In this document: positions 2,132-61,935 of the stretch, piece by piece
How the letters are laid out: each line of letters opens with the position of its first letter
Position numbering within the stretch: position 1 is the first letter of the stretch
Assembly: GCA_023131895.1 (NCBI GenBank)
Contig: JAGLYZ010000001.1
Location: 8,957 to 72,956, forward strand
Origin: Candidatus Parcubacteria bacterium
GTDB taxonomy: Bacteria > Patescibacteriota > Minisyncoccia > Minisyncoccales > JAGMDC01
Length of the DNA stretch: 64,000 nucleotides
Direction of reading: 5' to 3'
Program-made: the position numbers and the translations under genes
The notes under the pieces: generated by a model
What the model was told of the DNA's origin: nothing
Databases searched by the model: none
Seen by the model: only the letters and a program-made list of their open reading frames with translations

Positions 2132-3085
2132 ATGTTTTTTTTAAAGAAAAAGAAAAACCAAGAAATAGAGCTTGAAAAAAGAAAAAAAGATTTTTTTTCA
2201 CGGTTTTGTTTAACATATAAAGCCGTTTTTTTATTTTCAATTACATTTTCTATTTTATTATTTGCTTTTTCATTTTGCCAAGCCCTTGATCCAATAGAGG
2301 AAGGCATAAGTATTTCTGCAGTTGTAGAAGGCGTTGCTCCTCCTCCCTCTGCTGGAGGAGGGCCTATATTGCAATCCACAGTTGTTTTTAATGGAAAAGC
2401 ATATCCTGGAGCTTTAGTCACTATTTTAAGAAATGGCTCAATAGCTTCAACTTTAACAGCTGATTCTTCTGCTGAGTTTTCAGCAACCTTAACTGGAATT
2501 CCGTCTGGCTTTAGGATTTTTTCGCTTTGGGCTGAAGATAAAGAAGGGAAAAAATCACCAACTCTAAGTTTTAGTGTTTATTTAACAAACAGAACAAGCA
2601 CTACTTTTGCTGGATTATTTTTGGCACCGACTATTAATTTGAGTTCCTTTGAGATTTCTAAAGGAGAAGTTTTGGATATATACGGTTATACTGCTCCAAA
2701 AGCTGAAGTTAATATTTTTATCAATAATGGTTCAGAAGAAATTGTTTTGAGGACTAAATCTGATACTGATGGATTCTGGCTTTATTCGCTTGATACTTCT
2801 ATAATAAAAAAAGCAGGTTATTCGGTTAGAGCAAGATCAACATCTTCTACAGGAGAGATTTCAATGTTCTCCGAGTCTTTAGATTTTGAAGTTCTACCTG
2901 AAGGAATTGCTGTTTGCTGCGGAGCTGACATAAACTGCGATAACAGAATAGATATTGTTGATTTTTCAATTATGCTTTTCTGGTGGGAGTCAAAAGAAAT
3001 TAAAGACCCCTGCGTTGACATTAATTTAGACAATGAAGTAAATCTTGTTGACTTTTCCATTATGCTTTATTACTGGACAGGGTAA
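2132..3085 (+). CDS. Secreted protein with a C-terminal type I dockerin-like duplicated Ca-binding repeat
   Basis: Hydrophobic N-terminal segment ending ...FSFCQA. The C-terminus carries two tandem segments, DINCDNRIDIVDFSIMLFWW and DINLDNEVNLVDFSIMLYYW, matching the D-x-N-x-D-x-x-(I/V)-(D/N)-x-x-D-F pattern of dockerin F-hand repeats. Confidence 0.7.
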   Translation: MFFLKKKKNQEIELEKRKKDFFSRFCLTYKAVFLFSITFSILLFAFSFCQALDPIEEGISISAVVEGVAPPPSAGGGPILQSTVVFNGKAYPGALVTILRNGSIASTLTADSSAEFSATLTGIPSGFRIFSLWAEDKEGKKSPTLSFSVYLTNRTSTTFAGLFLAPTINLSSFEISKGEVLDIYGYTAPKAEVNIFINNGSEEIVLRTKSDTDGFWLYSLDTSIIKKAGYSVRARSTSSTGEISMFSESLDFEVLPEGIAVCCGADINCDNRIDIVDFSIMLFWWESKEIKDPCVDINLDNEVNLVDFSIMLYYWTG

Positions 3086-3110: not shown

Positions 3111-4283
3111 ATGCAAAGTTATAATTCAAAATTAAAAATTTCTTATTTTCTGATTTTAGTTTTTAGCTTTTCATTTTTAGTTTTTAATTATTGCCAAGCG
3201 GCGGTGTTTTATTTAATGCCTCAAGCGCAAACTGTTTATCAGGGCGATTCTTTTATTGTTGAAATAAGATTAGACACTGAAGAAGAAGAAATAAATACTG
3301 TTAAAGCAAATTTGATATTTCCTTCTGATTTGTTAGAAGTTGTTGATATTAATAAAGGAGGTTCTATATTGGCTCTTTGGCCTGAAGAGCCGGATGTTTC
3401 TAATAATGAAATATATTTTCTTGGAGGCGTTCCGGGCGGATTTAAAGGAGATGGAATAATTGCCAGAGTTATTTTTACAGGAAAAGAAATTAGCGGGGCA
3501 GAAGTTAGCTTTAAAGAAGCTTGCCATGTTTTATTAAATGACGGGCATGGCACTTCAGCTGATTTGAGTTTGCTTGGAGCGAGTTATGACATTATTGAAA
3601 AAACACAAGCTTGGCCGCTTATTTTTTCAACTACTCATCCAGACCAAAACAAATGGTCAAAATCAAGCACATTTCATATTCATTGGGATTTAGTTGAAGA
3701 AGCCGAATATAGTTATCTTTTAAGCCAGGACTCTTTGGCTGAACCTGATAATATTCTTGATAAGCCGGAAGGAGAATTGGTTTGGATGGGCGATATGAAG
3801 TATGTTGGTTTGGAAGACGGAATTTATTATTTTACTTTAAAGCAGAAAGACCCTGACCAGAGTTGGTCAGAGAAAATCACTTACAGGGCAATGATTGATT
3901 CTGCTGCTCCTGAAGAATTTAGTTTAAAGATTGCTCAAGACCAGAGTCTATTTGAAGAAAAATACTTTTTAAATTTTTTTACCACTGACAAGGGTTCAGG
4001 CATAGATTATTACAAAATAAAAGAAGGCAAAAGAGATTGGAAAACAATAAGCAGCCCTTATTTATTAGAAGACCAAGGACTACAGAGCATTATAAAAGTA
4101 GCAGCAGTAGATAAGGCTGGAAATGAAAGAATAGCAGAATATCTACCTTCAGAGACAAAGAAACTATTCCCTTGGCAGATAATTATTTTGATTCTGGCTG
4201 TGATTGGAGTAATTTGGTTGATTATTAAAAGAATTAGCGCGAAACCACTCGAAACAAAGACGCGAAACCACACAAAAGTTTAG
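3111..4283 (+). CDS. Membrane-anchored cohesin-like domain surface protein, paralogue 1
   Basis: I prefer the ATG at 3111 (MQSYNSKLKISYFLILVFSFSFLVFNYCQA signal) to the upstream 3045 start, which overlaps the previous gene. Cohesin-like module (VYQGDSFIVEIRLDTEEEEINTVKANLIFPSDLLEVVDI...GGVPGG...ARVIFTGKE...VLLNDGHGT), THPDQNKWS module, DGIYYF module, SGIDYY Ig-like module and C-terminal TM. Confidence 0.7.
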   Translation: MQSYNSKLKISYFLILVFSFSFLVFNYCQAAVFYLMPQAQTVYQGDSFIVEIRLDTEEEEINTVKANLIFPSDLLEVVDINKGGSILALWPEEPDVSNNEIYFLGGVPGGFKGDGIIARVIFTGKEISGAEVSFKEACHVLLNDGHGTSADLSLLGASYDIIEKTQAWPLIFSTTHPDQNKWSKSSTFHIHWDLVEEAEYSYLLSQDSLAEPDNILDKPEGELVWMGDMKYVGLEDGIYYFTLKQKDPDQSWSEKITYRAMIDSAAPEEFSLKIAQDQSLFEEKYFLNFFTTDKGSGIDYYKIKEGKRDWKTISSPYLLEDQGLQSIIKVAAVDKAGNERIAEYLPSETKKLFPWQIIILILAVIGVIWLIIKRISAKPLETKTRNHTKV

Positions 4284-12185: not shown

Positions 12186-12194
12186 TGTGGATAA
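12186..12194 (-). promoter_or_regulatory. Perfect DnaA-box 9-mer (TTATCCACA on the minus strand) upstream of nrdD
   Basis: tgtggataa read directly at 12186-12194 in the intergenic region. Confidence 0.45.
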
Positions 12195-12275: not shown

Positions 12276-14381
12276 ATGAAAAATAAAATTACTAAAATTA
12301 AAAAAAGAGACGGTAGAATAGTTGATTTTGACCAAGATAAAATTACAAAAGCGATTTATAAAGCTCTTACTTCCAGCGGCCAGGGCGATGGGAAGAAATC
12401 TAAGAGAATTTCCAATAGAATTGTTCAGATTTTGAACAGAAGATTTAAAAAAGATGAAGTTCCCACCGTAGAACATATTCAAGACATTGTCGAAGAAGTT
12501 TTAATATTAGAAAATTTAGTAGAAACAGCCAAGGCCTATATTTTATATCGTGAACAAAGAAGAAGAATTAGAGAAGCAATTACAGTAAGCGAGGAGGCAG
12601 TTAATCGAGTTGACCAGTATTTGGAAAAGCTGGACTGGGAGGTTCAGGAAAATGCTAATATGGCTTTTTCCTTGCAGGGTTTGAATCATTACGGCGTCAC
12701 TTATATCATAAAAAAATACTGGCTTAATAAAATTTATCCCAAGACGATAAGGGAAGTTGATGAATCAGGCGATCTGCATCTTCATGATTTGGATTCCTTA
12801 GCATGTTACTGCATGGGTTGGGATTTATATGACCTTTTATTAAAGGGATTTGGCGGCGTTTCAGGAAAGGTAGAAACAAAACCAGCAAAACATTTTAGAG
12901 CAATTTTAGGCCAGGCAGTGAATTTTTTATATACAGTCCAGGGCGAATGCGCGGGAGCGATCGCTTTTTCAAATTTTGATACTCTTTTAGCGCCTTTTAT
13001 TCGATATGACAATTTGAACTATCAACAGGTGAAACAATCGCTTCAGGAATTTTTATTTAATATGGCTGTGCCAACACGGGTCGGTTTCCAATGTCCTTTT
13101 AGTAATGTCACCTTAGACCTTAAGCCCTCTTCGGTTTTTGCTAAACAGCCAGTTATCATTGGCGGCAAGCCGCAAAAAGAAACATATGGCGAGTTTGCGG
13201 AAGAAATGAAAGTTTTTAATAGAGCTTTTTATGAAATAATGCTGGAAGGAGATAAATCAGGAAGACCCTTTCATTTCCCTATTCCAACTATAAACATTAC
13301 TAAAGATTTTCCCTGGGATGAACCAGCTTTTGATGGAATTTTTGAGGCCTCAGCAAAATACGGTACCAATTATTTTGCCAACTATATTAACTCGGAGATG
13401 GAGCCATCTGATGTACGTTCAATGTGTTGCAGGCTTAGGTTAAACCTGACAGATCTTTACAACCGTGGTGGAGGCGGGTTGTTCGGTTCAGGAACATTAA
13501 CCGGAAGTATTGGCGTGGTAACGGTTAATCTTCCAAGGATTGGTTATCTTTCAAAAACCAAGAAAGAATTCTTTGAACAACTTGGAAAAATGATGGATTT
13601 AGCAAGAGAAAGCTTAGAAATAAAAAGAAAAACTATTGAGGATTTTATTGAAAAAGGTTTGTATCCTTATTCAAAATTTTATTTGTCAGGAATAAAAAAA
13701 GCGCGCAATGCATATTTTGCCAATCATTTTTCAACCATAGGTTTAATAGGAACGAATGAAGCAATTTTAAATTTCTTAGGTGAAGATATTGGTTCCCGTA
13801 GAGGCAAAAAATTCGCCTTGGAAATTTTAGATTTTATGAGAGAAAAACTAGTTAAATATCAAAAAGAAACTGGCAATATTTATAACTTAGAACAAACACC
13901 GGCAGAAAGCACAAGTTATAGATTGGCTTTAAAAGATAGAGAGAAATATCCAGATATAATTACTGCTGGAACCAAGGAAAATCCCTACTACACCAATTCT
14001 ACCCAGCTTCCGGTTGATTATACAAATGATGCCTTTGAGGCATTAAAACTCCAAGACGAAATTCAAGCTAAGTATACAGGAGGCAGCGTACTCCATCTCT
14101 TTTTAGGTGAAAAAATTTCTGATATTCAAACCGTAAAAAGTTTAATTAAAAAAGTTTTTGAGAAGTTTCACCTTCCTTATATTACCATTACCCCAACTTT
14201 TTCTATTTGTCCGGTTCACGGTTATTTAAGCGGAGAACATTTTGAGTGCCCAAAATGTCTTGTTAAGCAGCCATGCGAAGTTTACTCCAGAGTCGTGGGA
14301 TATTACCGCCCCGTGACACAATACAATACTGGAAAACAGCAGGAGTTCAAGGAGAGAAAAGAATTTAAGATAAAGACATAA
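12276..14381 (+). CDS. nrdD: Anaerobic ribonucleoside-triphosphate reductase (class III RNR)
   Basis: N-terminal ATP-cone (KRDGRIVDFDQDKITKAIYKAL). C-terminal Zn ribbon (CPVHG...CPKC) and glycyl-radical motif (SRVVGYYRPV). 701 aa. Confidence 0.92.
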   Translation: MKNKITKIKKRDGRIVDFDQDKITKAIYKALTSSGQGDGKKSKRISNRIVQILNRRFKKDEVPTVEHIQDIVEEVLILENLVETAKAYILYREQRRRIREAITVSEEAVNRVDQYLEKLDWEVQENANMAFSLQGLNHYGVTYIIKKYWLNKIYPKTIREVDESGDLHLHDLDSLACYCMGWDLYDLLLKGFGGVSGKVETKPAKHFRAILGQAVNFLYTVQGECAGAIAFSNFDTLLAPFIRYDNLNYQQVKQSLQEFLFNMAVPTRVGFQCPFSNVTLDLKPSSVFAKQPVIIGGKPQKETYGEFAEEMKVFNRAFYEIMLEGDKSGRPFHFPIPTINITKDFPWDEPAFDGIFEASAKYGTNYFANYINSEMEPSDVRSMCCRLRLNLTDLYNRGGGGLFGSGTLTGSIGVVTVNLPRIGYLSKTKKEFFEQLGKMMDLARESLEIKRKTIEDFIEKGLYPYSKFYLSGIKKARNAYFANHFSTIGLIGTNEAILNFLGEDIGSRRGKKFALEILDFMREKLVKYQKETGNIYNLEQTPAESTSYRLALKDREKYPDIITAGTKENPYYTNSTQLPVDYTNDAFEALKLQDEIQAKYTGGSVLHLFLGEKISDIQTVKSLIKKVFEKFHLPYITITPTFSICPVHGYLSGEHFECPKCLVKQPCEVYSRVVGYYRPVTQYNTGKQQEFKERKEFKIKT

Positions 14382-15079
14382 TGCTTATTGGGGGACTGCA
14401 AAAAGTTACATTAATTGATTATCCGGGCAAGGTTGCTTGCACGGTTTTTTTAATGGGCTGTAATTTTCGCTGTCCTTTTTGTTATAGCGGTGAACTTGTT
14501 TTGCCAGAAGAAATAAAAAAACAGCCAATAATTCCAGAAAAAGTTTTTTTTGATTTTTTAAAAGAAAGAAAAGGATTATTAGAAGGAGTTGTCCTGTGCG
14601 GCGGTGAACCTACCATTTCTGAAGGTTTATTAGAATTCTGCCAGAAAATAAAAAAATTAGGATATTTGGTGAAATTAGATACTAATGGTTCAAGCCCAAA
14701 AATGATTGAGAAATTGATAAAAGAAAGATTGATAGATTATGTGGCAATGGATATTAAAGCACCGCAAAATAAATATAGTTTTTATTCAGGGAATAAATCA
14801 GATATCGAAAAGATTAAAAAAAGTGTTGATATCTTAAAGCAGAGAAGAATTGATTTTGAGTTCAGAACAACCGTGGCGCCTGGGTTGACAGAAAAGGACA
14901 TATTAAAAATTGCTGATTGGATCGGCGGTAAAAAAGTTAGTTATTTTTTTCAAGAGTTTAATTCTCAAAAGCCGATTTTAAATCCAGAGATTCTCAAACT
15001 CCCAGTTTTAAAAAAAGAAGAGATTGAGAAGGCTGTTGAAACAATGAAACCAAAATTTCAAATCTGCAAACTAAGATAA
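14381..15079 (+). CDS. nrdG: Anaerobic RNR activating protein (radical SAM)
   Basis: CNFRCPFCY motif and GGEPT motif. The start overlaps the nrdD stop (TAATG). Confidence 0.88.
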   Translation: MLIGGLQKVTLIDYPGKVACTVFLMGCNFRCPFCYSGELVLPEEIKKQPIIPEKVFFDFLKERKGLLEGVVLCGGEPTISEGLLEFCQKIKKLGYLVKLDTNGSSPKMIEKLIKERLIDYVAMDIKAPQNKYSFYSGNKSDIEKIKKSVDILKQRRIDFEFRTTVAPGLTEKDILKIADWIGGKKVSYFFQEFNSQKPILNPEILKLPVLKKEEIEKAVETMKPKFQICKLR

Positions 15080-16551
15080 TGACTGCCTCTAAAATATTGC
15101 TATGTTTTTGTCTTTCTTTTATTATAGGAATTTTTTTAAATTCCTTTTTTAATTTTTCTCTAGCTTTAATATTATTTTTTCTAATTTTGGGAATTTTGTT
15201 AATTTCCATTCCGCCTTTTTCTAAAAAAAAAGGATTAGTAATTCTGGGATTTTGTATTTTATTTTTATCTACTGGAATTTACCGCCAGGGGATTGCTGAA
15301 TTAAAAATTATAAATAATGAATTGAGAAAATATAATGATTTAGAGCAAAAAATAACCTTAACTGGAATAGTTGACGCAGAACCAGATACAAGGGAAAATC
15401 ATACACAATTAACAATTAAAATAAACAAGAGTAAAATTTTAGTTACTGCTGGCGCGTATCCTCAATATCAATATGGAGATAGGTTAGAAATTAAAGGAAG
15501 ATTAGAAACCCCTAAAGTTTTTGAGGACTTTAACTATAAAGATTATTTAGCCAAAGACGGAATTTATTCAGTAATGTATTACCCAGAAATCAGAAAGATT
15601 AACGAAGGTCGGGCCTTCGTTGGCTCTTTGGTTTATTCTAAGATTTTGGGTTTTAAAAATAAGTTGAGAGAATCAATTTTTCAAAATCTTTCGCCACCTC
15701 AATCATCAATCTTAGGAGCAATAATCTTAGGCGATAAAAGGCGGATTTCAGATGAGTGGAAGCAAAAATTAAACATTACCGGCACAAGGCATATTACCTG
15801 TGTTTCCGGCATGCATATAGTTATTTTAGCTGGTATTTTAATGTGGATTGGTATGGCTTTAGGCCTTTGGCGGACGCAGGCATTTTATTTTGCCATTGTT
15901 TTTTTGATTTTATTTATTATTATGGTTGGTTTTCCAGCGTCAGCAGTAAGGGCTGGTATTATGGGCGGTATGTTTCTTTTTGCCGAAAAAATAGGAAGGA
16001 TGAGAGTTGCTGACAGGGCATTGGTTTTTGCTGCTGCTTTAATGCTTTTTCATAATCCTCTTCTTTTAAGATATGATGTTGGATTTCAGCTTTCGTTTTT
16101 AGCTACTTTGGGAATAATTTATTTAATGCCTGTTTTTCAAGATTATTTAAAGAAAATTCCGATAGATTTTATTAAAAGCATTTTAGCAATGACTTTAGCT
16201 GCTCAAGTTTTTACTTTGCCGATTTTAATTTACAATTTTGGGTATATCTCTTTAGTTTCGCCAATTACCAATATTCTAATTGTGCCTTTTATTCCTTTTA
16301 TTATGATTTTTGGTTTTGTTTCTGGATTTTTAGGAATGGTTTGGCAGGCATTGGGCTGGATTTTTTCTTTGCCAGTATGGTTTTTACTAACCTATATTAC
16401 AAAAGTTGTTGATTTCTTTTCTCAATTGCCTTTTGCTTATCTGACAATAGAAAATATTTCCTGGCTCTGGCTTTTAATTGCTTATTTAATTTTAGCCATT
16501 ATTACCTGGCACCTAAACGAAAAACAAAAACTAAAATTTTTGGAATACTGA
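15079..16551 (+). CDS. comEC: ComEC/Rec2-like DNA internalisation channel protein, without the C-terminal metallo-beta-lactamase domain
   Basis: Polytopic membrane protein with an N-terminal OB-like (DUF4131-type) periplasmic segment and a Competence-domain motif (TGTRHITCVSGMHIVILAG). At 490 aa it ends before where a beta-lactamase domain would lie. The start overlaps the nrdG stop (TAATG). Confidence 0.75.
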   Translation: MTASKILLCFCLSFIIGIFLNSFFNFSLALILFFLILGILLISIPPFSKKKGLVILGFCILFLSTGIYRQGIAELKIINNELRKYNDLEQKITLTGIVDAEPDTRENHTQLTIKINKSKILVTAGAYPQYQYGDRLEIKGRLETPKVFEDFNYKDYLAKDGIYSVMYYPEIRKINEGRAFVGSLVYSKILGFKNKLRESIFQNLSPPQSSILGAIILGDKRRISDEWKQKLNITGTRHITCVSGMHIVILAGILMWIGMALGLWRTQAFYFAIVFLILFIIMVGFPASAVRAGIMGGMFLFAEKIGRMRVADRALVFAAALMLFHNPLLLRYDVGFQLSFLATLGIIYLMPVFQDYLKKIPIDFIKSILAMTLAAQVFTLPILIYNFGYISLVSPITNILIVPFIPFIMIFGFVSGFLGMVWQALGWIFSLPVWFLLTYITKVVDFFSQLPFAYLTIENISWLWLLIAYLILAIITWHLNEKQKLKFLEY

Positions 16552-21813: not shown

Positions 21814-23127
21814 ATGTACGAGTTACCAAAATTGAAATTTCCAAAATTTATAAAAGCTCCTGGAAGCCAGAAAATAGAGAAAGGTTTTCTTTTTAGAATT
21901 TTAATATTAAGCATCCTTGTTTCTTCTCTTTTCGGTTTTTTAGCTGGAGGATTTTTCAGTTATTATTTTTATCAGGAGGTAAAAGATTATCTTTCAGAAT
22001 TAGATATTGAAATTCCGGAAACTGAAAAAATAATTGAAAAGCATATTACAGAAAAAGAGTATATTCCTCAAACCACTCAGGAAGAGAAAATTATTAAAGT
22101 CGTTGAAGAAAACGCCCCGGCTGTAGTAAGTATTATCATTACAAAAGATGTGCCTGTTATTGAGCAGTATTTTATTGATCCTTTTGGAGAGGACTGGCCG
22201 TTTGAAATTCAGATACCAGAGTACCGGCAAAAAGGATTTGAAAAGCAGGAGATCGGAGGCGGAACTGGCTTTATTATTTCTAAAGATGGAATGATTTTAA
22301 CTAACAAGCATGTTGTTTTAGATAAAGAAGCTGATTATACGGTTTTTACCAATGATGGCAGGAGTTTTCCTGCTAAGGTATTGGCTCGAGATCCTGTTCA
22401 GGATTTAGCTATTATTAAAATACAGGGAAACGAAAAGCTGATTAAAGAAAAACCATTTATTATGGTAAAGTTGGGCAATTCTTCTAATCTTCAAATTGGC
22501 CAGACAGTTATTGCCATTGGCAATGCTTTGGGAGAATTCAGGAATACTATTTCAGTAGGCGTTATTTCCGGCTTGGGCAGGACTATTACCGCTTCTGGCG
22601 GCGGATTAGTAGAAATTCTTGAAGATGTTATTCAGACAGACGCGGCAATTAACAAAGGGAATTCCGGCGGGCCGCTTTTAAATTTAAAGGGAGAGGTAAT
22701 AGGTATTAATACAGCTACTGTTATTGGCGCTCAAAGTATTGGTTTTGCTATTCCAGTAAATAACGCTAAAAAGGATATTGAGCAGGTTAAAGCAATAGGC
22801 AAGATTGTTTATCCTTTTTTAGGAGTCCGTTATGTTTTAATCAATGAAAAAATTAAGGAAGAGCAGGGTTTGTCAGTTGATTACGGCATTTTAATTGTTC
22901 CTGGAAAGCAAGGCGAATCAGCTATTTTTCCTGATTCGCCGGCAGAAACAGCTGGCTTAAAAGAAGGTGATATTATTTTGGAATTTAATAATGAAAAAAT
23001 CAGTATTAGCAATTCTTTGGCAAAGATTATTTTAAAGCACAATCCAGGCGATAAGGTAAAATTAAAAATCTTGTCTGGCGATAAAGAAAGAACAATCTGG
23101 GTAATCCTATCCGAACGCGAAGAATGA
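21814..23127 (+). CDS. htrA: HtrA/DegP-family serine protease with PDZ domain, membrane-anchored
   Basis: Catalytic triad contexts LTNKHVV, DLAIIKI and GNSGGPLLN. C-terminal PDZ-like region (GLKEGDIILEFNNEKI). Confidence 0.9.
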   Translation: MYELPKLKFPKFIKAPGSQKIEKGFLFRILILSILVSSLFGFLAGGFFSYYFYQEVKDYLSELDIEIPETEKIIEKHITEKEYIPQTTQEEKIIKVVEENAPAVVSIIITKDVPVIEQYFIDPFGEDWPFEIQIPEYRQKGFEKQEIGGGTGFIISKDGMILTNKHVVLDKEADYTVFTNDGRSFPAKVLARDPVQDLAIIKIQGNEKLIKEKPFIMVKLGNSSNLQIGQTVIAIGNALGEFRNTISVGVISGLGRTITASGGGLVEILEDVIQTDAAINKGNSGGPLLNLKGEVIGINTATVIGAQSIGFAIPVNNAKKDIEQVKAIGKIVYPFLGVRYVLINEKIKEEQGLSVDYGILIVPGKQGESAIFPDSPAETAGLKEGDIILEFNNEKISISNSLAKIILKHNPGDKVKLKILSGDKERTIWVILSEREE

Positions 23128-23132
23128 AAATT

Positions 23133-23156
23133 CCGAGAACGGTTCTCGGCATTTTG
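23133..23156 (+). terminator. Terminator-like hairpin after htrA
   Basis: The ccgagaacggttctcgg palindrome is followed by cattttg, a weak T-tract. Confidence 0.5.
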
Positions 23157-23197
23157 GGGTTGATATTTGGTTTTAGTTGTTTACTATAAATAATAGA

Positions 23198-23206
23198 TGT
23201 GGATAA
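23198..23206 (-). promoter_or_regulatory. Perfect DnaA-box 9-mer (minus orientation)
   Basis: tgtggataa at 23198-23206, in the intergenic region between htrA and the G+C-rich segment. Confidence 0.4.
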
Positions 23207-23239
23207 TATAGTTCTTTTTAGTTCTTTTATAATATAAAG

Positions 23240-23460
23240 TTGGGAGCAGTATTTTAGTTTATCACTAAATTGAATGTGATAGATTAAAACGCTGCTCCCT
23301 CAAAGATAGTTTCTCGGAAAAGGGGTATTAGTGATTGACTTGGGTCTAACAAACCCAAAAGCCAACAATCACACGTGATGACACGGGGAGATAACGTCTT
23401 CCACAGAGAACTAGGGTTAGCAGTATGGAGCAGCACACTATATTAAAAAAGAATAGGAGG
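23240..23460 (+). other. Structured, G+C-enriched leader or candidate ncRNA of unknown class
   Basis: Nested complementary segments: gggagcag/ctgctccc enclosing tatcac/gtgata; gtgattg/caatcac enclosing ttgggt/acccaa; caatcac can alternatively pair with the following gtgat. It ends at an AGGAGG motif. Confidence 0.35.
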
Positions 23461-23474
23461 TGATATGCGAAAAG

Positions 23475-23783
23475 ATGAAGACAATAGTTGCGTTAGTAAT
23501 AGGAATAGCAGTAATTATGGCTGCATTGTCTGGAGCACCGATGGCAGTAGAATCACTATTAGCGGGTGAGGCTACACCGGCGAAAACAGGCATCGGAAAA
23601 AGTGCCCAAGTAGAAGCATTAAATGGTAAAGGATTGGGACCACCGGAAGGTAGCGTTGAACTTCAACCCCAGGATGAGATAATGCTCGCTGAAGAAGATG
23701 AAGATGTGGATTTTGATGACAGTATAGTAATAAAAAACGCCTTACGACTCGGCACCGGAAACGCCATCACGGCAGCAGGATAG
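23475..23783 (+). CDS. Hypothetical small secreted acidic protein; coding status uncertain
   Basis: ATG at 23475 lies 14 nt after AGGAGG (23455-23460). N-terminal hydrophobic segment (MKTIVALVIGIAVIMAALSGAPMA) and an acidic stretch (EEDEDVDFDD). G+C is far above the window norm, and an antisense ORF is also open here, so this could be ORF noise over an RNA gene. Confidence 0.35.
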   Translation: MKTIVALVIGIAVIMAALSGAPMAVESLLAGEATPAKTGIGKSAQVEALNGKGLGPPEGSVELQPQDEIMLAEEDEDVDFDDSIVIKNALRLGTGNAITAAG

Positions 23784-23856
23784 TATAGTGGGAACAAAGC
23801 GCGAGGATTATTTCCGAAAGGATTTGGAGTCATAAAAAATATCTTCAAGATATATT

Positions 23857-23896
23857 GAGGTGGTAAACATTTTTTTTACCCCTCTCTTTTTATTTT
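23857..23896 (+). terminator. Rho-independent terminator closing the G+C-rich segment
   Basis: gaggtggtaaa / tttacccctc arms (one mismatch) followed by tctttttatttt. Confidence 0.65.
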
Positions 23897-23968
23897 AAAT
23901 GGGGTTGATTTTTCACCTATTTTATAGTAAAAAGAAATAAAGCATATAAACATTACGAATTAAAGTTT

Positions 23969-24000
23969 TGTTAAAATGTTAAAATGCTTAAATGTTAAAA
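23969..24000 (+). repeat. Tandem octamer array tgttaaaa x4 (third unit tgcttaaa) abutting the clpB start
   Basis: Units at 23969, 23977, 23985 and 23993, read directly. Confidence 0.85.
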
Positions 24001-24007
24001 TGATTTT
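23993..24007 (+). promoter_or_regulatory. Extended -10 (TGtTAAAAT), N6, then the ATG of clpB; leaderless-type start
   Basis: tgt 23993-23995, taaaat 23996-24001, spacer gatttt, ATG at 24008. It is the last unit of the tgttaaaa x4 array. Confidence 0.45.
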
Positions 24008-26707
24008 ATGATTGGCGCTAATTTTACACACAAAGCCCAAGAGGCAATATTATTGGCTCAAGATTCAGCAAGAGAAATGGGTCAGCAGCAGATAGATGCT
24101 CTTCATCTGCTTTTTGCTTTATGCTCGCAGGAAGACAGCGTAGTTTTAACTTTGCTTCAAAAAATAGGAGTTGACATAGATGGTTTAAAAAAGAAAACCA
24201 AAGGCGCTTTAAGCGGGATTTCCAGCATTGCTAATCCACAAGCATTTGGCCAGTTTTATTTGACCCAGGATATGGCAAAGGTTTTGGATAGGGCAAGGCA
24301 GGAGGCAGTAAAAATGAACGATGAGTTTATTTCTATAGAACATTTGTTTTTAGCCCTGATTGATGTCCCGACTAAAGCAAAAGAGATTTTAGAAAATGTT
24401 AATTTTATACCAGCGGCCGGAGGCGCGCCTGCTTTGGAATTCGGCAAATTAAGCTATCAAGAAGTTTTAAAACTTTTAAAGCAAATTAGAGGAGGCCAGA
24501 GAATTACTGACCCTGAACCAGAAACAAAATACCAGGTTTTAGAAAAATATGCCAGAAATTTAAACCAGTTGGCCCGCCAGGGCAAGCTTGATCCAGTAAT
24601 CGGCAGGGAAAATGAAATCAGGCGATTGATGCAGATTCTTTCCCGAAGGACAAAGAATAATCCGGTTTTAATCGGTGAGGCAGGCGTAGGCAAGACAGCT
24701 ATTGTTGAGGGTTTGGCTCAAAAAATTATTAGAAAAGATGTTCCAGAAAGCTTGAGGGGTAAAGAAATTATTTCTTTGGATTTAGGAAGTTTAATTGCCG
24801 GCACAAAGTATCGTGGAGAATTTGAGGACAGAATGAAGGCAATGATTAAAGAAATAAATCGCGCAGCAGGCCATTATATTTTATTTATTGATGAGCTTCA
24901 CACTTTAGTAGGGGCTGGAGCTGCTGAAGGAGCTATTGACGCTTCTAACTTGTTAAAACCATCCTTGGCCAAAGGCGAGCTTCGGGCAATTGGAGCCACT
25001 ACTTTAAAAGAATATCAGAAGTATATTGAAAGAGACGCTGCCTTGGAAAGGAGATTCCAGCCAATCTATGTATCAGAGCCGACAGTTGAAGACACTATTG
25101 CTATTTTGCGCGGCATTAAAGAAAAATACGAGCTTCATCACGGAGTCAAAATCAAGGATTCAGCTTTAGTAGCAGCAGCTGAGCTTTCTGCCCGCTATAT
25201 TTCAGACAGGTTCCTGCCTGACAAGGCAGTGGATTTAGTAGATGAGGCGACAAGCGCTCTCCGTCTGGAAATAGAGTCAGAGCCAACAGAATTTGATGAG
25301 TTCAGGAAAGAAATTCAGAAATTAGAAATTGAAAAACAGGCGTTGAATAAAGAGAAAGGAGCCGGGCTAAAAAGACGTTTAACAGTTATTAACCGCAAGT
25401 TAGCTGATTTGAATGAAAAAATAAAAGATATTGAAATGCGCTGGAAAACAGAGAAAGAATTAATTCAGGGAATTAGGGGCTTAAAAAAGGAAATTGATGA
25501 TTTAAATTTCCAAGCGGAAGTCAACCAGAGAGAAGGCAATCTTCAGAAAGTGGCAGAAATAAAATACGGCAGAGTTCCAGAGCTTCTGAAAGAAATAAGC
25601 AAAAAAGAGAAAGAGCTTACAATATTTCAAAGAAAAAAAGGAATGTTAAAACAAGAGGTTTCTGAAGAGGATGTTGCGCGAGTGGTTGCTAATTGGACTG
25701 GTATTTTGGTGACTCGGTTGATGGAAGAAGAAGCTAAGAAGCTGGAAAGAATGGAGGAAATTCTTTCTAAAAGAGTAGTTGGCCAGGAATCAGCCATTAA
25801 GGCTATTGCCAATGCTATCAGGCGTTCCCGCGCCGGAATTGCAGAAGAGAATCGGCCATTGGGTTCGTTTATGTTTTTGGGCCCGACTGGCGTTGGTAAA
25901 ACAGAGACAGCGCGGGCTTTGGCAGAGTTTCTTTTTAATGATGAAAATGCTTTAGTTCGCTTGGATATGTCTGAATATATGGAGAAACATACTGTTTCCA
26001 AGATTATTGGCGCGCCGCCAGGCTATGTTGGTTATGAGGAATCTGGCCAGCTGACAGAGAAAATAAGAAGAAGGCCTTACAGCGTGGTTTTATTAGATGA
26101 AGTTGAAAAAGCTCATCCCGAAGTTTTTAATATTCTGCTTCAAATTTTTGAAGACGGCCGTTTGACAGACGCCAAAGGCAGAAAAGTTTCTTTTAAAAAC
26201 ACTATTTTAATTATGACTTCAAATATTGGTTCAGAAGAGATTGCTGAAATAGGCGATATAAATTCAATAGGTTTTTTAGAAAAAAAAGAAGAAGTAAGCC
26301 AATCTTTGAAAGACAAAGTTATGCCTGCTTTGAAAGACAGTTTTAGGCCTGAATTTTTGAATAGAATTGATGAAATTATTATTTTTAATTATTTGGGCAA
26401 AAAAGAAATCAAAAAAATAGTAGAAATTGAATTAGGAAAAGTTGTTAACCGCTTAAAGAGCAAGAAAATTACTTTAAATGTTACCTCTAAGGCAAAAGAA
26501 TTTTTAGCAGAAAAAGGTTTTGATCCTAATTTAGGGGCAAGGCCATTGAAGAGAGTGATTCAAAAACTTGTTTTAGATCCTTTGGCTTTGAAAATAGTTG
26601 TTGGTTTATTAAAAGAAGGGGAAAGGATTACCGCTGATTTGAAAGATGGAAAAATTGTTTTAAACGGCGTTCAAGAAATTCGGAAAAAAATAAAAGCTTT
26701 AGCTTAA
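24008..26707 (+). CDS. clpB: ATP-dependent chaperone ClpB (AAA+ disaggregase)
   Basis: Clp_N repeats, Walker A motifs GEAGVGKT and GPTGVGKT, a long coiled-coil M-domain between the NBDs, and no ClpP-binding IGF loop noticed. 899 aa. Confidence 0.92.
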
Positions 26708-29361: not shown

Positions 29362-29370
29362 TGTGGATAA
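29362..29370 (-). promoter_or_regulatory. Perfect DnaA-box 9-mer (minus orientation), within the 12-mer ctgtggataact
   Basis: Read at 29361-29372, intergenic. Confidence 0.4.
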
Positions 29371-30769: not shown

Positions 30770-30778
30770 TTATCCACA
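30770..30778 (+). promoter_or_regulatory. Perfect DnaA-box 9-mer (plus orientation), within the 12-mer agttatccacag
   Basis: Read at 30768-30779, intergenic. It is the exact reverse complement of the 12-mer at 29361-29372. Confidence 0.4.
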
Positions 30779-60712: not shown

Positions 60713-61935
60713 AGATTCTTATTTTGGTTAATTCTTTCCCTCCTGAAATTAGATCTGCTTCTCATCTTTTTTATGAACTTGCTGAAAGTTTAGTTGAAAA
60801 TGGCCATAAAGTTACAGTAATTACTGGACTGCCAAAGTATAATATTCCTAACTTAGATAAAAAATATAAAAGAAAAATATTGTTCCGAGAGAAGATGAAA
60901 GGAATAGAGGTGGTAAGATTGGCTACTTTGCCTTTTCCTCGCGGTATTCCAGCCGCAAGAACTTTTGAACAGTTTCTTTTATCTTCCCTCTTTTTTATTA
61001 GAGGACTTTTTTTAGAAAAGATGGATATAATTTTGGTTTATTCTCCACCATTGCCCTTAGGACTTTCTGCTTCTTTAATTAAGTTTTTTAGAAAAACACC
61101 TTTTATTTTTAATGTTCAGGATATTTATCCTCAAACCGCTATTGATTTAGGATTGCTTAAGAGTGGCTTCTTAATAAAAATAGCCAGGGCGATGGAAAAA
61201 TTTATTTATAAAAAAGCTTCTTTTATTACAGTTCATTCCAAAGGAAATCTTGATTATTTAGTTTCTGATGGCCTAAATCCTAATAAAATATCAGTAGTGC
61301 CTAACTGGGTAGATACTGGTTTAATAAAACCAGAAAATAGGATAAACGATTTTCGCCAGAGGTATAATTTAGGAAATAGCTTTGTGGTTTCCTATGCCGG
61401 AGTTATGGGTTTTGCCCAGGACTTAGAAACAGTGGTTGAGAGCGCTAAACTTCTTGATAGCTACAAAGATATAATATTTCTTTTAGTTGGTGAGGGCGTG
61501 GCAAAAGAAAAACTTCAGAATAAAGCAAAAGAGCTTCAATTAAAAAATGTTAAGTTTTTACAAATGCAGCCGCGTAGAATTTATCCACAGGTTTTAGCTG
61601 CTTCTGATATTTGTCTGGCAACCCTAAAAAAAGAAGTGAAAACACCAGTTGTGCCTGGAAAAATTATGAGCATTATGGCTGCCGGAAGGCCTATTATCGC
61701 AAGCTTGCCCTTAGAAGGAGATGCTTCAAAGATAATTAAGCAAGCGCAGGCAGGAATAGTTGTGGAGCCTGAAAATCCAAAAGCTATGTCACAGGCAATT
61801 TTAGAGCTTTATAAAAACAAAGAAAAAAGAGAAGAATTCAGTAGGAATGCGAGAAAATATGCAGAAAAGAATTTTTCCCGGGAAATCTGCGTTGGCAAAT
61901 ATGAAAATTTATTCTTGAAAATAATTAAAAAATAA
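60709..61935 (+). CDS. Glycosyltransferase family 4, WbuB-like
   Basis: MKILILVNSFPPEIRSASHLFYELAESLVENGHKVTVIT is a characteristic WbuB-type N-terminus. ATGA overlap with the previous gene. Confidence 0.75.
   Translation: MKILILVNSFPPEIRSASHLFYELAESLVENGHKVTVITGLPKYNIPNLDKKYKRKILFREKMKGIEVVRLATLPFPRGIPAARTFEQFLLSSLFFIRGLFLEKMDIILVYSPPLPLGLSASLIKFFRKTPFIFNVQDIYPQTAIDLGLLKSGFLIKIARAMEKFIYKKASFITVHSKGNLDYLVSDGLNPNKISVVPNWVDTGLIKPENRINDFRQRYNLGNSFVVSYAGVMGFAQDLETVVESAKLLDSYKDIIFLLVGEGVAKEKLQNKAKELQLKNVKFLQMQPRRIYPQVLAASDICLATLKKEVKTPVVPGKIMSIMAAGRPIIASLPLEGDASKIIKQAQAGIVVEPENPKAMSQAILELYKNKEKREEFSRNARKYAEKNFSREICVGKYENLFLKIIKK

Follow-up and report, generated by a model that had tools for sequence, protein, structure and literature searches.

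The DNA considered here is a segment of about 0.6 kb (23230–23896) within a window of 64,000 nucleotides from a Candidatus Parcubacteria bacterium, where the window denotes the whole stretch that was analysed. The segment lies between an htrA-like serine protease gene (21814–23127, + strand) and clpB (24008–26707, + strand). We consider it probable that it is a self-contained monocistronic gene for a small exported protein, inserted between htrA and clpB, whose mRNA is stabilised by a 5′ hairpin and whose cassettes have been swapped by homologous recombination. A sequence-only reading had offered two interpretations, an unclassified non-coding RNA (ncRNA) and a foreign gene for a small secreted protein preceded by a leader. 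Its observations were largely correct and its suggestion of a leader plus small exported protein was right, but the ncRNA interpretation was wrong. The apparent "mystery RNA island" thus turns out to be something ordinary, a gene for a small exported protein whose leader is structured: it adds a very small new protein family and a conserved leader hairpin, both of kinds already known.

From 5′ to 3′ the unit consists of one or two promoters, a hairpin of 23–24 bp, a leader of about 170 nt, a 10-nt Shine–Dalgarno (SD) sequence, an open reading frame (ORF) of 102 codons that we call ORF A, a block in the 3′ untranslated region (3′ UTR), and an intrinsic terminator. The unit would be transcribed as its own monocistronic mRNA, with the hairpin forming its 5′ end or lying very close to it. 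By analogy with the leaders of ompA, papA and aprE, the hairpin and the 10-nt SD would protect this mRNA from 5′-end-dependent decay, and the ORF A product would have its role outside the cell or in its envelope. Together, the promoter plus left hairpin arm, the SD block and the terminator form a constant expression frame, inside which leaders and ORFs have been swapped between close relatives, probably by homologous recombination on short conserved handles and possibly with the help of natural competence. The unit was found only in the window and the closely similar locus L002, and in loci L003, L084, L085 and L086. Its features, and those that border it, are as follows; folding z scores are relative to shuffled sequence.

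23133–23149, + strand: short G+C-rich hairpin just past the htrA stop codon (7-bp stem; −8.9 kcal/mol, z −1.4), terminator-like, with a weak T-tail on the + strand; the scan flagged the − strand
23160–23187, + strand: candidate sigma-70-like promoter P1, TTGATA-N16-TACTAT, a scan match with a putative function
23198–23206, + strand: DnaA-box consensus TGTGGATAA, between P1 and the hairpin; kept in L002 and L086, absent from L084 and L085
23219–23233, + strand: conserved block TAGTTCTTTTATAAT with a −10-like TATAAT (23228–23233), candidate promoter P2; identical in the window, L086, L084 and L085
23239–23302, + strand: 5′ RNA hairpin, 23–24 bp with one internal mismatch; left arm (23242–23265) conserved, right arm (23276–23299) variable
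23303–23426, + strand: leader type 1, shared with L002 only; includes a second helix (23331–23372); folding unexceptional
23427–23474, + strand: SD block, made up of GGAGCAG, an A-rich spacer and the extended SD sequence AGGAGGTGAT (23455–23464); 61–88% identical across six loci
23475–23783, + strand: ORF A, a 102-residue pre-protein with a predicted signal or anchor helix (about residues 1–24), then a 78-residue acidic exported part (pI 4.05, charge −10)
23788–23830, + strand: conserved 3′-UTR block GTGGGAACAAAGCGCGAGGATTATTTCCGAAAGGATTTGGAGT, with core ATTTCCGAAAGGATTTG at 23810–23826; 40 of 43 positions identical to L003, though the ORFs are 66% identical
23835–23896, + strand: constant 3′ end, AAAAATATCTTCA followed by the intrinsic terminator (stem GAGGTGGTAAA/TTTACCCCTC and U-tract, 23857–23896); 80–100% identical across six loci
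23901–23934, + strand: clpB promoter block GGGGTTGATTTTTCACCTATTTTATAGTAAAAAG, part of the backbone outside the cassette; kept in L003, L086 and the cassette-free loci L006 and L004

Coding evidence and product of ORF A

Homologues of ORF A were sought among 5.8 billion proteins by word-indexed search, and among 1.84 billion cluster representatives by an exhaustive hidden Markov model search. Three were found, among about 15 billion proteins: P0001, 98% identical and located on L002 in the same synteny; P0002, 57% identical and located on L003; and P0003, located on L084. The hits P0004–P0007 from the exhaustive search were rejected, being long repeat proteins and repeat-inflated artefacts. 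A peptide-pattern scan of JGI metagenomes gave no further homologues, and the gene is present in 0 of 80 species-representative htrA loci.

Among the three diverged copies, the ratio of non-synonymous to synonymous substitution rates (dN/dS) is 0.31–0.43, and third codon positions carry 40–46 differences, compared to 21–28 at positions 1 and 2. There are five or more indels, all of them multiples of three (24, 6, 6, 3 and 15 nt among others). Of the six frames, + frame 0 alone lacks stops in all copies across the ungapped core, and its ratio of non-synonymous to synonymous differences (pN/pS) of 0.31–0.47 is the lowest or equal lowest of the six. The conserved frame, the in-frame indels and the low dN/dS argue for a real protein-coding gene under purifying selection rather than an RNA gene. 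The ORFs reported earlier on the two strands (+ 23460..23783 and − 23663..23848) are indeed both open, and had been taken as a sign of non-coding DNA; the antisense ORFs carry stop codons in the homologues and were rejected. The product, previously given as 103 residues, is 102 residues long from the ATG at 23475, and the GTG at 23460 overlaps the SD sequence and is not a credible start.

All copies of ORF A have a positively charged n-region and a hydrophobic h-region, with a maximum hydropathy (KD15) of 3.1–3.3. AlphaFold2 models only an N-terminal helix (residues 2–18, pLDDT 55), which is hydrophobic, and leaves the remainder as coil at low confidence. The copies in L003 and L084 have an AVSA↓ cleavage motif, a site of AxA type, with a basic n-region. 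The remaining 78–82 residues are acidic (pI 4.05–5.05, with a net charge of about −10 in two copies) and contain no further hydrophobic stretch; the conserved motifs are ATPAKTGI-KS, GKGLGPPE, LQPQ-EIML-E and a C-terminal A-G. The product is thus probably a Sec-exported or N-terminally anchored small acidic protein, a prediction in line with the earlier proposal of a small exported protein behind a leader, which is supported by the extended SD sequence, the hydrophobic N-terminal helix and the acidic remainder. The acidic tail is probably disordered. Predicted tryptic peptides from the mature part include SAQVEALNGK and a long acidic peptide beginning GLGPPEGSVELQPQDEIMLAEEDEDVDFDDSIVIK.

Profile searches of Pfam, NCBIfam, PADLOC and PDB gave nothing significant for ORF A, nor for ORF B, the second ORF family found in these cassettes and described below. 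The matches to TafE (E 0.03–0.06) and Phage_holin_2_3 (E 0.004, below cutoff) were rejected as sub-threshold and driven by transmembrane (TM) segments or the signal peptide. Type I toxins are very small hydrophobic proteins (<60 residues) with a cis-encoded antisense RNA. A type I toxin–antitoxin system was rejected for ORF A, which has 102 residues, is acidic and hydrophilic past the signal helix, and has no conserved antisense promoter or ORF. ORF B was likewise rejected as such a toxin: at 111–117 residues and with multiple TM segments it is above the typical toxin size, and it has no family match.

The segment had first attracted attention as a G+C-rich island, and this was confirmed. The four hand counts of G+C in 60-nt lines (28/60, 25/60, 33/60 and 14/60) were exact on recounting; the region is 40.9% G+C compared to 33.3% for the whole window, which places it in the top 3.2% of 667-nt windows, and its best 300-nt stretch, at 48%, is the richest anywhere in the 64 kb. 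The G+C content of ORF A at codon positions 1, 2 and 3 (GC1, GC2 and GC3) is 0.62, 0.43 and 0.33, and its GC3 is at the level of its neighbours (htrA 0.28, clpB 0.33, the upstream glycosyltransferase gene 0.30). The excess is in codon positions 1 and 2 and the GC3 is host-like; the composition therefore does not come from a G+C-rich donor, and a foreign base composition was rejected. The G+C richness is due to a product rich in Ala, Gly, Glu, Pro and Val, and neither to RNA structure nor to foreign DNA. The earlier description of the gene as foreign holds in that the unit is a lineage-specific insertion, lacking in about 25 related species, but not for its synonymous-site composition. The case shows that amino-acid composition alone can create G+C islands in A+T-rich Candidate Phyla Radiation (CPR) genomes.

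The region had also been called highly self-complementary over its 0.6 kb. This was not borne out: the exceptional fold is limited to the 64-nt hairpin at 23239–23302. The 5′ 241 nt of the region fold with a z score of −5.3 because of this one hairpin, since the rest of the leader has a z score of −1.1, like shuffled sequence. ORF A (z +0.10) and the 3′ UTR (z −0.9 and −0.5) show no excess folding. Rfam 15 covariance models gave no match at gathering thresholds across the 64-kb window, and at E ≤ 10 gave only chance microRNA (miRNA) or terminator-like matches far under threshold on either strand of 22900–24200; there was no Rfam family match in the homologous or the cassette-free loci. ARAGORN found no tRNA or tmRNA in the region. 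The sequence-only reading had been unable to place a tmRNA, RNase P RNA, SRP RNA or riboswitch; the Rfam models, which cover these as well as 6S RNA, leaders and sRNAs, likewise gave no described RNA family.

These results bear on the idea, primary in the sequence-only reading, that the entire 0.6 kb is a structured ncRNA gene of an unclassified family in which the ORFs are accidental. Elevated G+C in an A+T-rich genome, the fold of the 5′ 240 nt and the open frames on both strands all fit such a gene. However, the folding signal traces to one hairpin, the GC3 is that of host genes, the leaders are unrelated and interchangeable between copies, and no Rfam family matches; and substitutions biased to third positions, 42 compared to 27 and 21 at the other two, a dN/dS of 0.31–0.43, frame-preserving indels and a single stop-free frame are the marks of coding selection. 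This is the very outcome that the sequence-only reading had specified as refuting its RNA hypothesis. We regard an ncRNA gene as barely credible, and return to the gene for a small exported protein.

The 5′ hairpin and the other expression signals

The helix described earlier as gggagcag/ctgctccc around tatcac/gtgata is real, and forms one continuous hairpin of 23–24 bp (23242–23299). The 64-nt hairpin of the window has a folding energy of −33.1 kcal/mol (z −9.1). Its five diverged versions (window, L003, L084, L085 and L086) have stems of 23–25 bp, each with one internal mismatch. As + strand RNA they fold with −29 to −34 kcal/mol (z −8.5 to −10.6), compared to −11.5 to −25 kcal/mol for the complementary strand, so that the + strand is more stable by 8–22 kcal/mol. 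This difference arises because many of the pairs are G–U, and it suggests that the hairpin works as + strand RNA and not as duplex DNA.

The left arm is nearly invariant, with the sequence GGGAGYAGNATTT(T)AGTTYATCA, and the mismatch site is its only freely varying position. The right arm varies, mostly by transitions that preserve wobble pairing. In the alifold consensus of 23 pairs, 12 are invariant, 6 have one-sided wobble-preserving changes and 2 are compensatory. Paired cells make up 95.7% of the hairpin alignment, compared to 34–51% with the partners slid. In 346 kb of related DNA, a covariance model of the hairpin matched the 5′ ends of the six cassette copies and nothing else. On its two sides the stem has GTTGGG...CCCAAC, of which GTT/AAC are the outermost pairs. 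On these comparisons the 5′ hairpin is a conserved RNA structure within the mRNA leader.

The conserved block TAGTTCTTTTATAAT occurs once in the window as an exact 15-mer, and ends 6–9 nt before the stem in every locus that has upstream sequence. A transcript from P2 would begin with the hairpin. P1, about 50 nt farther upstream, is the better sigma-70-like promoter; by reading, the same arrangement is seen as TTGACA-N16-TATTAT in L086 and as TTGACA-N16-TAGGAT in L084 and L085. We note that the cassette promoter region of the window and L002 contains a 10-nt tandem duplication, TAGTTCTTTT TAGTTCTTTT (23209–23228), which is single-copy in L086, L084 and L085, and which alters the spacing between any −35 element and the conserved TATAAT.

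Downstream of the hairpin, leader type 1 is 40–46% identical to type 2 (L003, L084 and L086) and to type 3 (L085), which is the level of unrelated sequence. The second helix proposed within it (gtgattg/caatcac with ttgggt/acccaa) exists at 23331–23372, but is not significant (z = −1.75; 14 of 200 shuffles are as good). An alternative pairing of caatcac with the following gtgat, suggested as a switch, would have a 2-nt loop, which is sterically poor, and has no comparative support. A riboswitch or other switch in the leader was rejected: without the hairpin the leader resembles shuffled sequence, the second helix is not significant, and the leader types are unrelated, type 1 being known in one near-identical second copy only (L002).

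The SD block is conserved whatever the leader or ORF type, and the AGGAGG reported previously is present at 23455–23460. The 10 nt of AGGAGGTGAT are complementary to the canonical 3′ end of 16S rRNA. Four nt past the SD sequence, an ATG opens an out-of-frame upstream ORF of 34 codons (23465–23569). In L003 the upstream ORF (313–327) has 4 codons (MPGR) and ends in a TGA that shares bases with the main ATG (ATGA); the corresponding ATG of L086 lies in the reading frame of ORF B. Since L084 and L085 lack this ATG, the upstream ORF is probably not functional.

The terminator at 23857–23896 was confirmed as a good intrinsic terminator, with a 10-bp stem and one bulge (−11.3 kcal/mol, z −3.5) followed by the U-tract UCUUUUUAUUUU; a simple terminator scanner missed it owing to the bulge. 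The 3′ UTR follows the ORF type, and its core ATTTCCGAAAGGATTTG is also kept in L084.

The conserved non-coding blocks might suggest a dual-function transcript, an mRNA that is also a regulator or protein sponge through its GGRAGCAG repeat, the 3′-UTR motif ATTTCCGAAAGGRTTTG and GGA-containing loops. GGRAGCAG does occur 30–45 nt ahead of the SD sequence in every leader type, even in the otherwise unrelated leader of L085, and the window and L003 agree at 40/43 positions of the 3′-UTR block even though the synonymous sites of the ORF are about 50% diverged. Against this, the 3′ block is absent from ORF B cassettes and only partly kept in L084, the 3′ UTR has no excess folding, no target or binding protein can be named, and the high identity could reflect recent recombination. 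We consider a second function for the transcript improbable.

The mRNA-stabilising role proposed here for the hairpin has parallels. The 5′ UTRs of E. coli ompA and papA and the leader of B. subtilis aprE are described as 5′ stabilising stem-loops (review PMC3997798, refs 92–95, 109). As in those cases, the mRNA encodes an exported protein and has a long leader that opens with a stable hairpin and leads to a strong ribosome-binding site; a −10 element precedes the hairpin by a few nt, and few or no unpaired 5′ nucleotides are expected. The cassette differs in that it belongs to a CPR bacterium, in that the left arm would double as a recombination boundary, and in that the position of its 5′ end is a prediction. 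Its stem, of 23–24 bp and about −30 kcal/mol, is presumably unusually long and stable compared to the hairpins of ompA and aprE. The extended SD sequence AGGAGGTGAT could itself hold a 30S subunit and protect the mRNA, as does the STAB-SD of B. thuringiensis cryIIIA (Agaisse & Lereclus 1996, cited as ref 106 in PMC3997798). The two differ in that the cryIIIA element is a separate upstream element, whereas here the sequence is the sole SD upstream of the ORF A start, 14–15 nt away. The very stable 5′ hairpin and the 10-nt SD together are a candidate portable expression and stability element for this group of bacteria.

Several observations weigh against the explanation proposed here. Only four distinct ORF A sequences are available, so that the selection estimates are coarse, and − frame 1 has a pN/pS (0.36–0.50) similar to that of the coding frame, though it holds stop codons. 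Sec signals have small residues at −3 and −1 of the cleavage site, but the aligned site of the window protein reads APMA↓, where position −3 is Pro, so that its helix may stay uncleaved and anchor the protein in the membrane. The distance of 14–15 nt from AGGAGG to the ATG is long by E. coli standards. With a start at P1 the hairpin would be preceded by about 45 unpaired nt, and this would weaken the idea of 5′ protection. Formal covariation is weak: the left arm is almost invariant, there are two compensatory pairs, and 41 of 500 shuffles reach the observed score. Since this score is not significant, the case for the hairpin rests on thermodynamics, on strand asymmetry and on persistence across unrelated leaders.

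Finally, a 24-bp perfect duplex is a substrate for RNase III, and the hairpin could be a site of processing or decay. In the main alternative for the hairpin, it is an RNase III processing or regulatory site at which cleavage of the stem triggers decay or matures the leader, and so controls expression of the small protein. RNase III has a stem-length requirement, for which 23–24 contiguous bp with a single conserved 1×1 mismatch are long enough; the mismatch site is the sole freely varying position of the left arm; and with a start at P1 the hairpin would be internal rather than terminal. However, the conserved TATAAT just upstream of the stem puts a plausible start right at the stem. We judge an RNase III site to be unlikely, but it is the strongest competitor to a stabilising hairpin; a dual-function RNA, an integron-like system (below) and a pure ncRNA are progressively less likely.

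Exchange of leaders and reading frames

Exchange of parts of the unit is seen on comparing L084 with L085, the latter found by a metagenome scan with the left-arm pattern. The upstream 2903 nt, up to and including the hairpin, show 99.7% identity between the two loci, and all five mismatches are in the right arm. Downstream, identity sets in again just before the terminator stem, at 99.3% over 149 nt. Between these flanks lie about 650 nt of unrelated sequence, where L085 has a short different leader and ORF B. Within the hairpin, identity is 100% for the left arm and 77% for the right, and past it the two loci are unrelated.

A second exchange is seen between L003 and L086. The leader of L086 is 68–72% identical to the L003/L084 type (77% to L003 over the part aligned by blastn), and its stretch from terminator to clpB is 92% identical to L003; L086 carries an ORF B homologue, and the ORFs of the two loci are unrelated. 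Here the left crossover point is the SD block. L002, 98% identical to the window overall, differs mainly by an L085-like cluster of changes, again in the SD block. Across the six cassette loci there are three unrelated leader types and two unrelated ORF families, and identity is 85–100% in the left arm, 80–100% in the terminator and 61–88% in the SD block. This pattern marks the hairpin, the SD block and the terminator as the crossover points, and shows that leaders and ORFs have been exchanged within a fixed frame. A further point on the other side of the balance is that L084 and L085 are metagenome contigs, in which an assembly switch at the handles is possible; both cassette types are corroborated in other loci. 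With flanks about 99.7% identical, these contigs provide a clean natural case of leaders and ORFs shuffled inside a fixed frame of promoter, hairpin, SD and terminator.

ORF B (L085, 3857–4192; L086, 3438–3791) encodes an orphan membrane protein of 111–117 residues (111 in L085) with multiple TM segments and a conserved C-terminus, TSPQNL…S-PRN(I/L). The two copies have diverged by a dN of 0.50 and a dS of 1.04. The protein search returned only ORF B itself, and the only family signal was the sub-threshold match to Phage_holin_2_3 mentioned above (17.6 bits compared to a cutoff of 28.8). Families A and B, with a handful of members each, are added to the poorly known secreted and membrane protein repertoire of Patescibacteria.

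In the called genes within ±10 kb, and in those on L085 and L086, no Pfam domain of an integrase, recombinase or transposase was detected. A pilS-like system was argued against, as there are no silent donor copies in the 64-kb window. Homologous recombination on the short conserved handles would be the simplest mechanism. The window contains a ComEC-like competence gene (15079–16551).

We also considered a site-specific recombination cassette, either integron-like or acted on by a hairpin-binding recombinase, in which the hairpin is the site and strands are exchanged in or near its loop. Several properties recall integron cassettes: the promoter lies outside the exchanged part, the L084/L085 breakpoint is inside an imperfect boundary hairpin whose stem is flanked by GTTGGG...CCCAAC, and the cargo is a small ORF without a promoter. 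In integrons, attC sites have the boxes R″-L″...L′-R′ (RYYYAAC...GTTRRRY), and the attC hairpin is 3′ of the cassette ORF. In the present cassettes these boxes are absent, GTT/AAC being the outermost and not the inner pairs, and the hairpin, which is transcribed, lies on the 5′ side of the ORF. Furthermore, there is no integrase or transposase domain in the genes just described, there is a single slot with neither an array nor silent copies in the window, the L003/L086 exchange has its left breakpoint in the SD block and not in the hairpin, and the G–U-dependent strand asymmetry points to RNA. A site-specific cassette therefore seems very improbable.

For exchange by homologous recombination, the closest precedent is in the minimal mobile elements of Neisseria, described in PMC3787668 (citing Saunders & Snyder 2002; Snyder 2007) as variable genes between conserved flanking genes, moved by homologous recombination after transformation. 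As in those elements, different genes occupy one site in the closest relatives, between flanks that are 99.7% and 99.3% identical and without mobility genes; most relatives have nothing in the htrA–clpB gap and others have unrelated cargo there, and a ComEC-like gene is present in the window. They differ in that the breakpoints here are inside the expression signals of the gene itself (hairpin loop, SD block and terminator), on handles of about 40–50 nt rather than in flanking genes, and in that the cargo is one small ORF, with leader and ORF exchanged independently.

More speculatively, the site may be a dedicated "expression slot" beside the envelope-stress genes htrA and clpB, used by a population of ultra-small episymbionts to swap small envelope or secreted proteins (the acidic secreted A and the membrane protein B) together with their leaders, with the hairpin and ribosome-binding site doubling as recombination handles. 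We regard this as a tentative and rather unlikely extension of the explanation above. If true, it would mean population-level variation of a surface or host-interaction factor; and if exchange is a population-level strategy, the slot would be a simple model of surface-factor variation in uncultured episymbionts.

Distribution and flanking elements

About 20 species representatives, with 57–69% HtrA identity, retain the htrA–clpB synteny, and most of their gaps are 30–170 nt long. The cassette is also absent from L087 to L092, which have about 80% ClpB N-terminal identity, and from L006, in which the 68 nt between the two genes can be aligned to the window's clpB promoter block. In all, about 25 related species have htrA and clpB adjacent and lack the unit. 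Among the loci that carry it, those with enough clpB sequence for comparison match the window at 84% identity or more in the 5′ DNA of clpB. The unit is thus a lineage-specific insertion in a narrow Nealsonbacteria-like subclade of the Patescibacteria (CPR). Searches of viral collections gave no match for the hairpin, the terminator or the protein. Other species have unrelated cargo in the htrA–clpB gap (L004, 6339–8223; L007, 6327–8343; L008, 6303–7181; and L016, L018 and L019), and this intergenic site is a general insertion hot spot in the clade.

The cargo of L004 and L007 includes an ORF of about 340 residues that is DAHP-synthase-like by eye, and other gaps hold orphan ORFs of 239, 142, 86 and 94 residues. 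L087, which is cassette-free, has a 230-nt G+C-rich spacer (905–1134) containing …CCCCTAAAGCTGCCTGCAGGGATGATG…CCCTGTGGCAGCAAGC…, with obvious complementary segments and no Rfam match. Between htrA and the cassette, L084 (636–2640) and L085 (1476–3480) encode two secreted proteins with weak cohesin-like and dockerin-like Pfam matches. In L085 these genes are followed, at about 3526–3551, by an inverted repeat GAGCACTC-N10-GAGTGCTC that resembles the CIRCE (controlling inverted repeat of chaperone expression) heat-shock operator; no CIRCE element is present in the window.

At the upstream edge of the inserted unit, marked by the hairpin at 23133–23149, both this hairpin and the DnaA box reported ahead of the segment (23198–23206) are present. 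The absence of the DnaA box from L084 and L085 means that it is no constant part of the unit, as judged from the loci compared. The perfect 9-mer TGTGGATAA occurs five times in the window (12186–12194, 23198–23206, 29362–29370, 30770–30778 on the − strand and 61581–61589 on the − strand), where 0.69 occurrences are expected and 0 of 100 shuffles reach five. Four of the five are intergenic, one of them directly upstream of an nrdD-like gene (12276–14381). GC skew climbs monotonically over the sampled 20–27 kb, giving no hint of an origin in that interval; here DnaA may be a transcription factor.

The whole inserted unit is bracketed by a 9-nt direct repeat, GGGGTTGAT, at 23156–23164 and 23901–23909, the only two copies in the window; the second copy is the first 9 nt of the clpB promoter block. 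A target-site duplication was rejected, as 12 of 100 shuffles give two or more copies and L084 and L085 lack the repeat, which could be a duplicated promoter start or chance. At the corresponding position, L086 has an element of about 150 nt (2905–3055) with terminal inverted repeats of about 25 nt (GGGGTCAACCCCGCACCTTTAATGGAT ... ATCCATTAAAGGTGCGGGGTTGAC). It looks like an insertion of a miniature inverted-repeat transposable element, and its sole Rfam match is a chance miRNA-precursor match (E 0.4). Immediately upstream of the clpB start, the window has a tandem octamer array (23969–24000) of three exact copies of TGTTAAAA and a variant, TGCTTAAA, which has no counterpart at the matching position in L003 or L086 and may have arisen by slippage or serve as an operator.

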